Shown piece by piece: positions 8,356-14,999 of a stretch of DNA of 26,401 nucleotides (position 1 is its first letter; every line of letters starts with the position of its first letter). The notes beneath the pieces are model-generated. The model was not told the DNA's origin. It saw nothing but the letters and a program-made list of their open reading frames with translations, and ran no database searches. A program made the translations under genes and the position numbers. Source of the stretch: a virus. The stretch lies in UHGV virus genome UHGV-1485618; one strand, given 5' to 3'.

Positions 8356-8540
8356 ACGCCACAATTCAAACGATACCAGAGCTTCTTATCCAGACACGAG
8401 GCAATCAGACCGAAGTGGCAAGGATGCTTTCCTGCGCAAGAGGAACAGTGCTCAAGTACAACCGAGACAGTAAAGGCGAGCGTCACGTAATAGTTAACGG
8501 CGTCCTGATGGTCAAACAGGGAAAAAGGGGAAGGCCATGA
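8352..8540 (+). CDS. ninH: NinH-like small DNA-binding protein
   Basis: Motif GNQTEVARMLSCARGTVLKY...HVIVNGVLMV resembles lambda NinH. Confidence 0.8.
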   Translation: MNATIQTIPELLIQTRGNQTEVARMLSCARGTVLKYNRDSKGERHVIVNGVLMVKQGKRGRP

Positions 8541-9160
8541 GACTCGAAAGCGTAGCTAAATTTCATTCGCCAAAAAGCCCGATGATGAGCGACTCACCAC
8601 GGGCCACGGCTTCTGACTCTCTTTCCGGTACTGATGTGATGGCTGCTATGGGGATGGCACAATCACAGGCCGGATTCGGGATGGCTGCATTTTGCGGTAA
8701 GCACGAACTCAGCCAGAACGACAAACAAAAGGCTATCAACTATCTGATGCAATTTGCACACAAGGTATCGGGGAAATACCGTGGTGTGGCAAAGCTCGAA
8801 GGAAATACTAAGGCAAAGGTACTGCAAGTGCTCGCAACATTCGCTTATGCGGATTATTGCCGTAGTGCCGCGACGCCGGGGGCAAGATGCAGAGATTGCC
8901 ACGGTACAGGCCGTGCGGTTGATATAGCAAAAACAGAGCTGTGGGGGAGAGTTGTTGAGAAAGAATGCGGAAGATGCAAAGGTGTCGGCTATTCAAGGAT
9001 GCCAGCAAGCGCCGCATATCGCGCTGTGACGATGCTAATCCCAAACCTTACCCAACCCACCTGGTCACGCACTGTTAAGCCGCTGTATGACGCTCTGGTG
9101 GTGCAATGCCACAAAGAAGAGTCAATCGCAGACAACATTTTGAATGCGGTCACACGTTAA
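8537..9160 (+). CDS. Q: Late-gene antiterminator Q (lambda type)
   Basis: 207-aa translation MRLESVAKFHSPKSPMMSDSPRATASDSLSGTDV... matches lambda Q from memory; followed by pR'. Confidence 0.95.
   Translation: MRLESVAKFHSPKSPMMSDSPRATASDSLSGTDVMAAMGMAQSQAGFGMAAFCGKHELSQNDKQKAINYLMQFAHKVSGKYRGVAKLEGNTKAKVLQVLATFAYADYCRSAATPGARCRDCHGTGRAVDIAKTELWGRVVEKECGRCKGVGYSRMPASAAYRAVTMLIPNLTQPTWSRTVKPLYDALVVQCHKEESIADNILNAVTR
8824..8837 (-). promoter_or_regulatory. Possible paQ CII-binding site (TTGC-N6-TTGC) antisense within Q
   Basis: Plus strand GCAAGTGCTCGCAA, i.e. TTGCGAGCACTTGC on the minus strand. Confidence 0.45.
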
Positions 9161-9434: not shown

Positions 9435-9509
9435 GGGTCAGTCGTATAAAGGTCATTACGGAAGGCTGTTAACCTTCTTATCGTGGTTCGAGTCCACGCT
9501 GTCCCGCCA
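9435..9509 (+). tRNA. tRNA-like gene, predicted anticodon GUU (Asn), CCA encoded; one mismatch in the acceptor stem
   Basis: Hand-folded cloverleaf: acceptor GGGTCAG/CTGTCCC (T-T mismatch at pair 4), D-loop with GG, anticodon stem GAAGG/CCTTC with loop CTGTTAA, T-arm CGTGG-TTCGAGT-CCACG, discriminator G, CCA. Confidence 0.5.
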
Positions 9510-9514
9510 AACAT

Positions 9515-9590
9515 GCTGGTTTAGCTCCAATGGTAGAGCAGTCGCCTTGTAAGCGAATGGGTAGCGGTTCAAGTCCGTTAACCAGCACCA
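9515..9590 (+). tRNA. tRNA-like gene, predicted anticodon UGU (Thr), CCA encoded
   Basis: Hand-folded cloverleaf: perfect 7-bp acceptor GCTGGTT/AACCAGC, D-arm GCTC-CAATGGTA-GAGC, anticodon loop CTTGTAA (stem has a G-A mismatch at 27-43), T-arm AGCGG-TTCAAGT-CCGTT, CCA. Confidence 0.55.
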
Positions 9591-10616: not shown

Positions 10617-11050
10617 GCAGAGTAACCGCGATTATCTCCGCTCTGGTTATCTGCATCATCGTCTTCCTGTCATGGGCGGTTAATCATTACCGTGATAACG
10701 CCATTACCTATAAAGAACAGCGCGATAAGGCCGCATTCATTATCGCTGACATGCAGAAACGTCAACGCAATGTAGCAGAACTCGACGCCAGATATACAAA
10801 GGAGCTTGCTGATGCTAACGCGACTATCGAAAGTCTCCGTGCTGATGTTTCTGCTGGTCGTAAGCGCATGCAAGTCGCCGCCACCTGTGCAAAGTCAACG
10901 ACCGGAGCCAGCAGCATGGGCGATGGAGAAAGCCCAAGACTTACAGCAGATGCTGAACTCAATTATTACCGTCTACGAAGTGGAATCGACAGGATAACCG
11001 CGCAGGTTAACTACCTGCAGGAGTACATCAGGACGCAATGCCTGAAATAA
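10613..11050 (+). CDS. Rz: Spanin inner-membrane subunit Rz
   Basis: N-terminal transmembrane segment and coiled-coil periplasmic domain directly after R. Confidence 0.9.
10812..10997 (+). CDS. Rz1: Spanin outer-membrane lipoprotein Rz1, embedded in the +1 frame of Rz
   Basis: Embedded ORF with signal and lipobox (LVVSAC) followed by a Pro-rich mature region; start taken at the third Met of the listed ORF. Confidence 0.75.
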
Positions 11051-11081
11051 TTTTTTTGCAAATCACAAAGTCCATTTAATG

Positions 11082-11105
11082 AGCCTCGCGATGCGGGGCT
11101 TTTTC
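11082..11105 (+). terminator. Rho-independent terminator after the lysis cassette
   Basis: GC-rich stem AGCCTCGC / GCGGGGCT with GAT loop, followed by TTTT. Confidence 0.7.
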
Positions 11106-11111
11106 CAATAA

Positions 11112-11136
11112 ATGCGTACCGCAACGCATGTTTTTT
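11112..11136 (+). terminator. Second tandem terminator-like hairpin
   Basis: ATGCGT / ACGCAT stem with 6-nt loop, followed by GTTTTTT. Confidence 0.55.
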
Positions 11137-11251
11137 ACACCGAACCTGCCCCTTTGGAATGGGCCTTTGAGGATACCAGTTAGTGCTGGCGAGCCTCGGT
11201 GGGCTGGTTTCCTGTGCGGCAAAGGTTCATTTCAAAGAGTAGGTACACGCT

Positions 11252-11749
11252 ATGAAATCATTAACCCTCTTCAATCAACCAATTCGTATCGGTGAAGATG
11301 GCATGATCTGCCTCACTGATATGTGGAAAGCCAGTGGTAAAAGTGAATCTGAATCGCCTTACCACTACCTGCGAAACAAGCAGACCAAAGAGTTCTTAGC
11401 CGAGCTGGAGAAAAACCACGAATCTGTGGTTTTTACTGAGCGCGGTGTACACGGTGGAACATATGGCGGGAAGTTTGTTGCTTACGATTATGCGGCTTGG
11501 TTAAACCCCGGGTTCAAGTACGCGGCCTATAAAGTCCTCGATGACTACTTCACCGGAGAACTTCAGCATCGCAACAGCTTAAGTGCGCAGCTCAACATGA
11601 AATGTCATGAGTTTGACCAGAAGAAAGACATGGCGAGCTTCTGCGGACAAGGGCTGGCAGCATGGCGCTATACGAAGCCAGTGTTGGTCGCTGAGATTAA
11701 CTCCCTGGCTAACCAGCTGCAGATTACGATCCCCGGGCTTCCGGGATGA
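11252..11749 (+). CDS. KilA-N domain protein, 165 aa
   Basis: N-terminal IRIGEDGMICLTDMWKASG and ERGVHGGTYGGKFVAYDYAAWLNP fit the KilA-N/APSES-type DNA-binding pattern. Confidence 0.65.
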   Translation: MKSLTLFNQPIRIGEDGMICLTDMWKASGKSESESPYHYLRNKQTKEFLAELEKNHESVVFTERGVHGGTYGGKFVAYDYAAWLNPGFKYAAYKVLDDYFTGELQHRNSLSAQLNMKCHEFDQKKDMASFCGQGLAAWRYTKPVLVAEINSLANQLQITIPGLPG

Positions 11750-12003
11750 GTGATCGTGTCATTGAATGCGCCTCCAGAGCGGGGCGTGACTTCTCAGAGT
11801 TCATGAAAGGTGAGAAGGGCATGATGGAAGCATTGGCCTCGGTGGATGAGTTTGGCGAGCAGCTGCGCCTCAACGGCTGTGTCAATCATCACTTTGTTAG
11901 CTACATGATGCGGAACTCGATCATGCAGGCATTCATGGACATGGCAAAAGCCGAGAGGAAAGAAGAGCGCCGGCGTAAGCGAGCGGAAGCAAAAGCGAAG
12001 TAG
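11746..12003 (+). CDS. Hypothetical protein, 85 aa, basic C-terminus; translationally coupled to the KilA-N gene
   Basis: ATGA overlap with the upstream stop; no family recognised. Confidence 0.5.
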   Translation: MSDRVIECASRAGRDFSEFMKGEKGMMEALASVDEFGEQLRLNGCVNHHFVSYMMRNSIMQAFMDMAKAERKEERRRKRAEAKAK

Positions 12004-12298
12004 CCATTACAAAGCCCATCTACGGGTGGGCTTGATAATGAAACCGGAGTTAATTTCTGGTCACTAATTAACGGCAGTACAGCGAAACAACCCAAGCCAG
12101 AAAGTGGGGAAATAACACTGGCAGCCACTGAAAGATGAACCTCCTGCCTGATGGCAAAAAAGATTCTTTGTGGTGGCGGACTGATGGAAAGACATCGGTT
12201 ATTGCAGAGACCATTCAATGAGTGGTCTCGACAATGGCTTATACCCTGCACGGGATAACTTAACTGATATCCCTTTTAACGGATAAACGGAGCCAACA

Positions 12299-12541
12299 AT
12301 GGCAGAGATTATTCCCATGACTGAAGAACAGAAATTCCAGTTAGAGATTTACAAACTGGTCATGAACCAGAACGCAGCCGCAGAGGAAGCATTTCAATTC
12401 ATTGGCACTGACGAGCTGAAGCTTGAGCTATTCAAAATTCACTTCCAGTCAGGCGGCGCTAATTCAGATATCACGACCCGAACTATCGAAGCGGTGCGTA
12501 AATCGAAGGAAGCGTTAGACCTGTTCACCACCGGAGCATGA
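12299..12541 (+). CDS. Hypothetical small acidic protein, 80 aa; first gene of a two-gene cassette
   Basis: ORF after a 295-bp intergenic region; its stop lies 1 nt before the next start codon. Confidence 0.5.
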   Translation: MAEIIPMTEEQKFQLEIYKLVMNQNAAAEEAFQFIGTDELKLELFKIHFQSGGANSDITTRTIEAVRKSKEALDLFTTGA

Positions 12542-12542
12542 T

Positions 12543-13031
12543 ATGACCACTATTGCATGGGATGGAAAGACCCTGGCATCTGACACCCAGGCATCATCTG
12601 GTGATGTTGTGTGTTCGTATACAGAACAAAAGATTTACACACCGCCAGAATCTGGGTGGGAGGTTTGCGGCAGTAAAGTGGTTGCATTAGGTTGTTCTGG
12701 TGATTGCGGCGCGGAGATGGAATTGCAGGAACTGCTTAAGAACAACCTGACGTATGCATCAGAATTTCTCCCGACATTCTCTTTCACCGCGCTTGCTATC
12801 ATCGGTGCTGGTCGTGCTTACATCATCTCAAAAGAGAAAGGCGAAACGCGGGCGAGTATTTCGCGACAGGTTGAACCGTATGCCATTGGTAGTGGTGGGC
12901 TGATTGCTCGCACAGCCATGCACTGCGGCAAAAATGCGAGAGAAGCGGTACAAGTCGCAATTGATCTTGACTGCTATTCCGGCGGCAGCGTTGATTCGTT
13001 CCCCGCTGGGAAGCAAACAGAAGGGAAATAA
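12543..13031 (+). CDS. Putative Ntn-hydrolase, HslV/proteasome beta-subunit-like threonine peptidase, 162 aa
   Basis: Starts Met-Thr-Thr-Ile (Thr nucleophile exposed after Met removal). [17 protein letters not shown] and [13 protein letters not shown] align by eye with E. coli HslV (AGDGQAT, KVIAGFAGGTAD, IAIGSGGPYAQAA). GGAG Shine-Dalgarno 6 nt upstream. Confidence 0.55.
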
Positions 13032-13036
13032 TCAAT

Positions 13037-13525
13037 ATGGCAGCACCAAAGGGCAACCGATTTTGGGAGGCCCGCAGTAGTCATGGGCGAAATCCTAAAT
13101 TCGAATCGCCTGAGGCGCTGTGGGCTGCTTGTTGTGAATACTTCGAGTGGGTGGAAGCTAACCCGCTATGGGAGATGAGGGCGTTCTCGTATCAGGGTGA
13201 AGTGATACAAGAGCCTATCGCCAAGATGCGAGCGATGACCATTACCGGCCTCACTCTGTTCATTGATGTGACGCTTGAAACATGGCGCACATATCGCCTG
13301 CGAGAAGATTTATCTGAAGTCGTTACGCGAGCAGAACAGGTCATCTACGACCAGAAATTCTCTGGCGCAGCCGCTGACCTTCTCAACGCTAACATCATCG
13401 CCCGTGATTTGGGCCTCAAAGAGCAGTCGCAAGTTGAAGACGTGACACCTGATAAGGGAGATCGCGATAAGCGGCGCTCTCGTATCAAGGAGCTATTCAA
13501 CCGTGGAACTGGACGCGATTCTTGA
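13037..13525 (+). CDS. Terminase small subunit (P22 gp3 type)
   Basis: 162-aa translation [47 protein letters not shown]... matches P22 gp3 from memory; contains a pac-like sequence. Confidence 0.9.
13304..13325 (+). other. pac site (P22 type) inside the terminase small-subunit gene
   Basis: GAAGATTTATCTGAAGTCGTTA (followed by CGCGAG) matches the P22 pac sequence as I remember it. Confidence 0.65.
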
Positions 13526-14999
13526 TAACCTGAGCGACGAAGAGCAAATCGAATTGCTCGAGCTACTCGAAGAAGAAGAGAACTACCGGAACACACACCT
13601 GCTATATGAATTTACGCCATACAGCAAACAGCGTGAGTTCATCGACGCCGGACATGACTATCCAGAGCGATGTTTTATGGCTGGTAACCAGCTTGGTAAG
13701 TCATTTACTGGTGCTGCTGAAGTCGCGTTTCACCTTACAGGGCGTTATCCGGGCACAAAAGGCTATCCTGCTGATGGTAAATATGGCGGTGAGTGGAAAG
13801 GTAAGCGTTTCTATGAGCCTGTTGTCTTTTGGATTGGTGGCGAGACAAACGAGACTGTAACCAAAACGACTCAACGCATCCTGTGCGGTCGTATCGAAGA
13901 GAATGACGAGCCTGGCTACGGTTCCATACCGAAAGAGGACATCATTAGCTGGAAGAAGTCTCCTTTCTTTCCGAACCTTGTTGATCATCTTCTGGTTAAG
14001 CATCACACGGCTGATGGCGTTGAAGATGGCATTTCAATCTGCTACTTCAAACCATACTCTCAAGGCCGTGCTCGCTGGCAGGGTGACACAATCCACGGCG
14101 TGTGGTTTGACGAAGAGCCACCATACAGCATTTATGGCGAAGGTCTTACCCGTACCAACAAATACGGGCAATTCTCAATTCTGACGTTTACCCCGCTGAT
14201 GGGGATGTCTGACGTTGTTACCAAGTTCCTGAAGAATCCCAGCAAGTCGCAGAAAGTGGTCAACATGACCATCTATGATGCTGAGCACTATACCGACGAG
14301 CAGAAAGAGCAAATCATCGCATCCTATCCCGAGCACGAGAGAGAGGCGCGTGCTCGCGGTATTCCTACGATGGGTAGCGGTCGAATCTTCCAGATACCGG
14401 AAGAGACGATTAAGTGTCAGCCGTTCGAGTGTCCTGATCACTTCTACGTCATCAATGCAATGGACTTCGGATGGGATCACCCACAGGCACATATCCAGCT
14501 TTGGTGGGATAAAGACGAGGACGTGATTTATCTTTCTCGCGTCTGGAAGGCCAAACAGAAGAAGGCGACAGAGGCATGGAGTGCTGTTAAAGCATGGAGC
14601 AAAAACACCCCTACGGCTTGGCCTCATGACGGGCATCAGCACGAAAAGGGAGGCGGCGCTCAGCTCAAGGAACAATACGCCGAAGCTGGGTTCGACATGT
14701 TGCCAGATCATGCAACATGGCCTGATGGAGGTAATGCGGTCGAACCCGGGATAGCAGAGATACGCGACATGATGCTCGACGGTCGTTTCAAGGTATTTAA
14801 CACCTGCGAGCCATTCTTTGAAGAGTTTCGTCTGTATCACCGCGATGAGAACGGGAAGATCGTCAAGCTAAATGACGACATCCTTTCTGCTGTTCGCTAT
14901 GGCTACATGATGAGGCGTTTTGCAATACAGATGCGAGACATCAAAGATCCTAAAGAGATTGATTACTCAAGCTACAACATACCTTGCGGAGTTGGATGA
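13503..14999 (+). CDS. Terminase large subunit (P22 gp2-like), 498 aa
   Basis: Size and position between small terminase and portal; ATPase and nuclease-type motifs; overlaps the small-subunit 3' end. Confidence 0.9.

Follow-up and report, generated by a model that had tools for sequence, protein, structure and literature searches.

What role does a stand-alone threonine protease, one that comes without an unfoldase, have for a phage? This question is raised by a gene in UHGV virus genome UHGV-1485618 (26,401 nt, hereafter the window), a P22-like temperate phage of which the segment 12,004-13,031 was followed up here. The gene encodes a 162-aa protein that we identify as a probable peptidase of the HslV/proteasome type. 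Our best explanation as a whole, to which we assign a probability of roughly 0.55, is that it is an accessory gene that would be expressed late in infection and whose product would act as a protease independently of HslU. The peptidase unit consists of the following features.

12543-13031, + strand: coding sequence of the predicted peptidase, 162 aa, an HslV/proteasome-like N-terminal-threonine peptidase of the phage proteasome homolog (PPH) family; stop codon included
12533-12536, + strand: Shine-Dalgarno GGAG of the peptidase gene, read from the sequence (ccGGAGcatgatATG), inside the 3' end of the DUF2560 gene and 6 nt upstream of the peptidase ATG

Homology to HslV and proteasome subunits

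Significant homology for the 162-aa protein was obtained only with a family profile and with structure. The protein matched phrog_1040 of PHROGs, "peptidase HslV family", at 2.2e-37, and a profile of 56 homologs searched against the PDB found archaeal proteasome beta at 5e-9, many HslV structures at 1.2e-8 to 3e-8 and the beta-proteobacterial proteasome homolog (BPH) at 3.7e-5; a phmmer search of the PDB with the single sequence was insufficient (best E 0.84). Alignment to E. coli HslV by hhalign gave a probability of 96% (E 2.9e-9) and reproduced the pairings that a first-pass annotation of this DNA had made by eye, namely MTTIA with MTTIV, ASDTQAS with AGDGQAT, K30 with Lys33, ALGCSGD with IAGFAGG and YAIGSGG with IAIGSGG. 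The AlphaFold2 model of the protein (predicted local distance difference test, pLDDT, 94.5; predicted template modeling score, pTM, 0.89) has the alpha-beta-beta-alpha sandwich of the N-terminal nucleophile (Ntn) hydrolases that is found in proteasome subunits. Its top Foldseek matches were exclusively HslV, proteasome beta and BPH, with HslV the closest solved structure. The proposal of the first-pass annotation that the protein is an Ntn threonine peptidase homolog of the HslV/proteasome fold is borne out by the profile, hhalign and structure, by which Thr1, the equivalent of Lys33 and the GSGG loop were all located.

Predicted active site

Conservation at the predicted catalytic positions was counted over 220 relatives, 142 of them representatives at 50% identity.

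12546-12548, + strand: codon of Thr2, the predicted N-terminal nucleophile (Thr1 after removal of Met), aligned to HslV Thr1; Thr in 210 and Ser in 9 of the 220
12582-12584, + strand: codon of Asp14, counterpart of proteasome Asp/Glu17, aligned to HslV Asp17; Asp in 217 of 220
12630-12632, + strand: codon of Lys30, counterpart of Lys33, aligned to HslV Lys33; Lys in 216 of 220
12690-12701, + strand: codons of G50-C-S-G53; in the hhalign register G50 is the oxyanion-hole Gly47 (HslV Gly45) and G53 is Gly50 (HslV Gly48)
12888-12896, + strand: codons of G116-S117-G118, counterpart of the proteasome Gly128-Ser129-Gly130 loop; G116 in 220 of 220, position 117 Ser in 195 and Thr in 13, G118 in 219
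12969-12980, + strand: codons of D143-C-Y-S146, counterparts of proteasome Asp166 and Ser169; D143 in 200 of 220, position 146 Ser, Thr or Cys in 219 of 220

The residue set of peptidase family T1 (D14, K30, G50, S117, D143 and S146) is complete in the 162-aa protein and conserved in its relatives, and Gly53 is found in all but one of the latter (219/220). The motif D143-x-x-S146-G-G matches the Asp166/Ser169 motif of the proteasome, and we take D166-S-A-S169-G-G of the T. acidophilum beta subunit to be its counterpart. At the N-terminus the protein begins Met-Thr-Thr, as does E. coli HslV, from which Met1 is removed by methionine aminopeptidase. Nearly all relatives start with MTT, MTV or MTI, and position 1 of the profile is residue 1 of the protein in almost all of 150 representatives, indicating that there is no propeptide. 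As for E. coli HslV, the methionine aminopeptidase of the host would take off Met1, and the amine and hydroxyl of the exposed Thr1 would then form the nucleophile, with Lys30, Asp14 and the oxyanion hole at Gly50 as probable helpers. Taken jointly, the identity of the 162-aa protein and its catalytic competence are, as far as its sequence can tell, very nearly certain.

Hallmarks of the phage proteasome homologs

PPH is a family of proteasome homologs from phages, with members of ~140 residues, that Fuchs, Alva and Lupas (2021) described and assigned to Group I together with HslV and BPH. Its members have no propeptide and no C-terminal S12/H5, are without helix H2 (an absence shared uniquely with RPC), and are encoded in tailed phages and prophage contexts (Fuchs et al. 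2021). The window peptidase is alike in being compact, in having no propeptide, S12/H5 or H2, in keeping the catalytic triad and the oxyanion Gly, and in belonging to tailed phages and prophages of proteobacteria. In its AlphaFold2 model a lone helix (57-66) lies between strands 48-53 and 81-88, from which it follows that H2 is missing, and the model terminates after strand 150-154. HslV residues ~67-80 stand opposite a gap in the hhalign alignment, and the segment from Gly53 to Phe81 is 28-33 aa long across the family. The family is also phage-borne, as evidenced by 111 phage records identified by tblastn, 178 IMG/VR stretches and the phage genes that surround it.

The point in which the window protein is unlike the published PPH members is its length (162 aa versus ~140), which is due to an insertion between Lys30 and Gly50.

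12639-12683, + strand: residues 33-47, beta-hairpin insertion, with strands 39-41 and 44-46 in the model and a gap opposite HslV in hhalign

The hairpin insertion, of ~10 residues, is specific to an enterobacterial temperate-phage subclade; the spacing from Lys30 to Gly53 is 23-24 in ~50 of the 220 sequences and 13-14 in most. It is because of this insertion that the protein has 162 aa when most of the family has ~140-150. The family comprises 8795 clusters at 50% identity (E<=1e-10), mostly of 138-150 aa, and the median length of the relatives is 150 aa. The C-terminal extensions of longer relatives were considered as a functional clue and set aside, as no Pfam domain was found in them.

Other proteasome-type proteins differ more from the window peptidase. 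BPH is a chromosomal, constitutively expressed protein of ~185-200 aa that has H1 as well as H2 and an elongated pore loop; it forms tetradecamers and was reached by the peptidase profile with an E of only 3.7e-5. With respect to the 20S proteasome beta subunits, the window peptidase is 40-70 residues shorter and has no propeptide, no alpha-ring partner and no H2. HslV (ClpQ), the peptidase core of the ATP-dependent HslUV protease, differs in its H2, so that the window peptidase has no equivalents of the Ala79/Lys80 pocket or the Arg86/Arg89/Lys90 pore; identity between the two is ~20%, there is no adjacent hslU, and the peptidase falls below the Pfam and NCBIfam thresholds.

Proposed independence from HslU

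The C-terminus of HslU enters a pocket of HslV that involves Phe54, Phe57, Ala79, Lys80 and Gln114 (PMC6429459). At the pore, Arg86, Arg89 and Lys90 are required for HslV activity and shift on HslU binding (PMC5777263). The stretch of HslV from Ala79 through Lys90 lies in H2, the helix that is missing from the peptidase family, and positions 59 and 62, the H1 equivalents of Phe54 and Phe57, are variable among the relatives. In addition, no AAA+/HslU gene was found among the neighbors of the peptidase gene in 36 lineages, to which 80 IMG/VR loci were reduced at 90% identity. For these three reasons, canonical docking of HslU by the peptidase appears unlikely from its sequence and model.

These features also bear on two alternatives in which HslU is the target. 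One is that the phage protein takes the place of HslV on HslU hexamers and so redirects ATP-dependent degradation. In its favor, the hosts of the close relatives are all Enterobacteria, which carry hslVU, and HslV is the closest solved structure. Phage genomes also carry HslV-like genes only, with no HslU of their own (PMC7823757). However, the helix holding both Ala79 and Lys80 of the pocket and Arg86, Arg89 and Lys90 of the pore is absent, the Phe54/Phe57 equivalents are not maintained, and the jumbo-phage relatives probably act in compartments free of HslU, so that we regard this alternative as quite unlikely. The other, raised by the first-pass annotation, is that the protein is a catalytically inert mimic of HslV that titrates HslU. 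Overall resemblance to HslV is the only point in its favor. Inactive proteasome subunits lose Thr1, whereas the catalytic residues in this family are near-invariant and under strong purifying selection across the 220 diverged relatives; moreover, the HslU-docking surface is not conserved, its H2 part being missing altogether. An inert mimic is thus disfavored to the point of being extremely improbable.

The reading we prefer is that the peptidase would act stand-alone, without docking the HslU of the host, and would probably self-assemble. Its specificity may be conferred by a self-assembled chamber, such as those of HslV and BPH, or by acceptance of few substrates, in the manner of connectase. 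Late in infection it would cleave some host or phage protein and would have an optional role in fitness or counter-defense. We put the chances of this mechanism, a late-expressed protease independent of HslU, at about even.

Connectase, an archaeal proteasome-like protein ligase, also suggests a non-degradative alternative by analogy, since it combines the proteasome fold and a reduced H1/H2 layer with one specific substrate. The peptidase, with its own reduced H1/H2 layer, could likewise be a site-specific processing enzyme or transpeptidase that works on a single defined substrate, either alone or in a small oligomer. We consider this possible, although on balance unlikely.

A one-gene insertion upstream of terS

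In the window the peptidase gene is flanked by the following genes.

12299-12541, + strand: DUF2560 gene (PF10834, 1.1e-43), 80 aa, a backbone gene of the P22 orf80 type; context, outside the peptidase unit
13037-13525, + strand: small terminase gp3 gene, terS (PF16677 GP3_package 3.2e-33; phrog_606)

The first-pass annotation had put the 162-aa ORF (open reading frame) 1 nt downstream of one for 80 aa and had described the 80-aa protein as acidic; both statements are correct, as a single nucleotide of the + strand separates the TGA of the first ORF from the ATG of the second and the pI of the 80-aa protein is 4.72. The start of gp3 follows 5 nt after the peptidase stop codon. What did not hold was the description of the 80-aa and 162-aa genes as a two-gene cassette. 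Of 5426 complete E. coli genomes, 899 have DUF2560 and 10 have the peptidase, the DUF2560 protein is 100% identical in peptidase-less prophages (HZDC01 and C4), the indel in alignment A2 spans the peptidase alone, and the hairpin and inverted repeat that precede the two genes are also conserved in phages without the peptidase. In most P22-like prophages gp3 comes directly after DUF2560. In alignment A2 the peptidase gene is inserted right after the DUF2560 stop, where it displaces a spacer of ~35 nt, and the ribosome-binding region of gp3 is supplied by the 3' end of the peptidase gene. The insertion, located between the DUF2560 stop and the terS start, is precise and consists of one gene, and the peptidase gene is a rare accessory gene.

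A related alternative is that the peptidase and DUF2560 work together as a two-protein module, for instance of a protease with a regulator or adaptor. DUF2560 is immediately upstream in 9 of the 36 peptidase lineages, often at a distance of 2-3 nt, and this arrangement persists where the peptidase has diverged to 41% identity. Against such a module, DUF2560 is ~90 times commoner without the peptidase, the same DUF2560 protein occurs in prophages that have no peptidase, the remaining 27 of 36 lineages lack a DUF2560 gene nearby, a 95-aa ORF separates the two genes in Dewey-type phages, and their order is reversed at one locus (L042). We therefore think a module very unlikely; DUF2560 and the peptidase simply share the slot before terS. 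The extra 95-aa ORF shows that this slot gains cargo stepwise.

The 95-aa ORF (L001:3702-3989, CDS0076 of phage Dewey) is also present in L028, L029 and L031 and belongs to a lineage whose peptidase is 91% identical to that of the window. The AlphaFold2 model of the DUF2560 protein is a four-helix structure (pLDDT 77) and had no significant fold match in the PDB.

Placement near packaging genes

In the enterobacterial temperate-phage subclade, the peptidase gene lies between the lysis cassette and terS. Small terminase is the next gene in eight lineages, starting 4-36 nt past the peptidase stop in seven of them and 338 nt past it in the eighth, and this placement spans the unrelated small terminases GP3_package, Sf6_terminase, Terminase_2 and phrog_1206. 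In SeSz-2-like siphophages the peptidase gene is found between the large terminase gene (terL) and the portal gene, and in jumbo and some lytic phages it is among unrelated small genes. Overall, a terminase or portal gene is located within 1.5 kb in at least 17 of the 36 lineages. Against a positional null of 18% this corresponds to a binomial p of 5e-5, a value to be read in light of the lineages not being phylogenetically independent and of cargo genes not being randomly placed. Unsupervised clustering of the three neighbors on either side at the 80 loci found no conserved partner gene, as only TerS, DUF2560, TerL, portal and spanin recur.

Possibly, the placement directly before terS, across at least four unrelated small-terminase families, or between terL and portal reflects function, with the peptidase being an HslU-independent viral mini-proteasome or a site-specific protease that is made with the packaging machinery. 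Such an enzyme could break down a host factor by which terminase or portal is sensed or blocked (e.g., Avs-type sensors), or could process a packaging-related protein. We think a link to packaging distinctly unlikely. The junction between lysis genes and terS in lambdoid phages is a hot spot for cargo genes, and it is for this reason that we read the position mainly as that of a late-expressed accessory gene.

At one locus (L011:4001-4447, P0080) the peptidase gene is directly before the large terminase gene, with an overlap of 8 nt, and in L054, L057 and L058 it likewise precedes TerL. No recognizable small-terminase gene is present between the two at these loci, where the peptidase gene stands in the place in which terS would be expected. 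The GC content of the window gene was also examined for a signature of horizontal transfer and is unremarkable (0.50 for the gene and 0.49 for the window).

Expression and evaluation of the preferred reading

In the window, the peptidase gene is on one strand between Q and the lysis genes on one side and terS on the other, and no + strand sigma-70 promoter was predicted in 11000-13600. The gene would be transcribed with the late operon in a Q-dependent manner, alongside the lysis and packaging genes, and would probably be translated from its own GGAG.

Several points weigh against the reading of the gene as a late-expressed, HslU-independent PPH protease. With regard to identity, PF00227 (Proteasome) was silent in the Pfam scan of the 162-aa protein, which gave no match at E<=1, and the sole match in the NCBIfam scan was an archaeal proteasome beta model at 14.8 bits versus a cut-off of 224. 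Position 50, part of the putative oxyanion hole, is Gly in 163 of the 220 relatives and Ala in 51. The protein has the hallmarks of PPH in its sequence, a membership judged from these features and the match to PHROG 1040 rather than from a comparison with the reference WP_042125023.1. In the searchable literature we found no experimental datum for any PPH member, only mentions at the level of annotation. With regard to expression, a small RNA named P22G has been reported in the intergenic region upstream, which means that transcripts there are not simply read-through, and the peptidase may be expressed in the lysogen.

Relatives in other phages

Among the 111 phage records with family members is that of the P22-like Escherichia phage Dewey, in which the gene at this position is 90.7% identical and is annotated as "peptidase HslV family protein". 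The other tblastn matches are at most 38% identical and are from jumbo phages (SPN3US, EL and Erwinia phages), from siphophages and myophages of Klebsiella and Salmonella, and from Vibrio phages; many of these records carry the same HslV annotation. Homologs that are listed as "hypothetical" ORFs do occur as well, as the first-pass annotation had anticipated. Novelty of the gene is not supported in view of PHROG 1040, the published PPH family and the annotation in Dewey: both the family, with its assigned fold, and the annotation are already known, with no experimental study found.

The nearest experimental datum concerns gp116 of Erwinia phage RAY, assigned to the "HslVU protease family", which co-localizes with DNA in the phage nucleus. 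Jumbo phage pSal-SNUABM-04 has two HslV-like ORFs, ORF1 and ORF116 (PMC7823757), and tblastn found only one place per jumbo-phage record. RAY gp116 is therefore probably a different paralog, and the second HslV-like copy in jumbo phages probably belongs to a different family of proteasome homologs.

A distant member of the family (L009:982-1803, the context of P0087) is situated in a run of small accessory genes, ~2.2 kb downstream of a homolog of Acb3 (anti-CBASS). As a single case, this neighborhood is compatible with one of anti-defense genes. PADLOC matched the peptidase to no defense system.

Other features of the window

The assignment of the window to a P22-like temperate phage agrees with its gene content, which includes a CI-type repressor on the opposite strand, an O-like initiator, a DnaB-like helicase and a Q-like antiterminator (8537-9160). 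These are followed by tRNA-Asn, tRNA-Thr, holin, endolysin and spanin genes, and downstream of gp3 are those for TerL, portal, scaffold, coat and ejection proteins. Features upstream of DUF2560 are as follows.

9435-9509, + strand: tRNA-Asn(GTT), between the Q-like antiterminator and holin genes
9515-9590, + strand: tRNA-Thr(TGT), between the same two genes
11252-11749: KilA-N/ORF11CD3 protein
11746-12003: 85-aa phrog_875 protein
12004-12298: intergenic region, 295 nt

The same arrangement of tRNA-Asn and tRNA-Thr is found in a prophage of E. coli 0H26. Three records of E. coli 0H24/0H26 that are labeled as plasmids (NZ_CP081778.1, NZ_CP081786.1, of 39,448 bp, and NZ_CP081694.1) contain a P22-like region as in the chromosomal prophage of the same strains, and are probably circular phage genomes that were assembled separately.

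The intergenic region and P22G

The intergenic region contains a hairpin and an inverted repeat, both of which had been noted in the first-pass annotation and both of which are longer than it described (arms 12005-12018/12027-12040 and 12201-12217/12219-12235). It also contains the structured core of a reported small RNA.

12005-12040, + strand: hairpin with arms 12005-12018 and 12027-12040, from a repeat search; backbone module
12091-12200, + strand: structured core, the core of the P22 small noncoding RNA "P22G", from a sequence match (PMC13397905) and a covariance model (126.8 bits); not part of the peptidase unit
12201-12235, + strand: inverted repeat with 17-nt arms, 82% complementary, from a repeat search

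Among P22-like prophages the region hardly varies, whether the peptidase is there or not, and its hairpins are for that reason assigned to the phage backbone. It folds with a z of -5.9, and none of 200 shuffles was as good. A role for the hairpins as promoter or terminator was rejected, as no + strand promoter or convincing terminator was found in the intergenic region, and Rfam had no family for the region even at E<=1. P22G itself is a 204-nt small RNA from RNA-seq of P22-infected Salmonella that was listed without known function (PMC13397905).

The P22G core is made up of the P1 hairpin, the long stem P2, whose inner hairpin varies, and a conserved GGCGGAC followed by a hairpin with a GAAAGA loop. 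Divergent copies were recovered by the covariance model in L107, L130 and L145 (E 1e-10 to 1e-12); the phage contexts of these copies are a late operon that follows a Q-like gene, a replication/recombination region and the vicinity of an integrase. In an alignment of eight sequences, which was fitted to the model, 96.3% of cells are paired as compared with 77.7% in shuffles and 33-54% in slid controls. In the same fitted alignment 16 of 25 pairs have compensatory double changes, a result reached in none of 500 shuffles. Together these data are strong covariation support for three helices. Motif matches in L099, L134, L153, L162, L172 and L199 were dismissed as chance, as they share no architecture with the core; that in L162 is inside a 919-aa ORF and has a covariance-model E of 0.48.

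The first hairpin also recurs alone at other gene boundaries (L035:1605-1641, L037:6252-6289 and L058:4951-4984), and intergenic insertions are found between the modules, of 59 nt in HZDC01, of ~240 nt, including a small ORF, in C4 and of ~400 nt in L019 and L026. This suggests that the intergenic modules are module-boundary or recombination-joint sequences.

Implications

As a discovery the gene is ordinary, since the family, its fold assignment and the annotation all pre-exist. Were the peptidase in fact tied to packaging, a viral proteasome homolog would for the first time have an assigned function. The locus is a convenient one in which to pursue the role of such an enzyme, as it is from a P22-like phage of E. 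coli/Salmonella and has clear catalytic residues to mutate. An isolated relative capable of lytic growth, phage Dewey, is available, and natural relatives that match across the compared junction, in the terS start and the DUF2560 protein, differ by the precise presence or absence of the peptidase gene.

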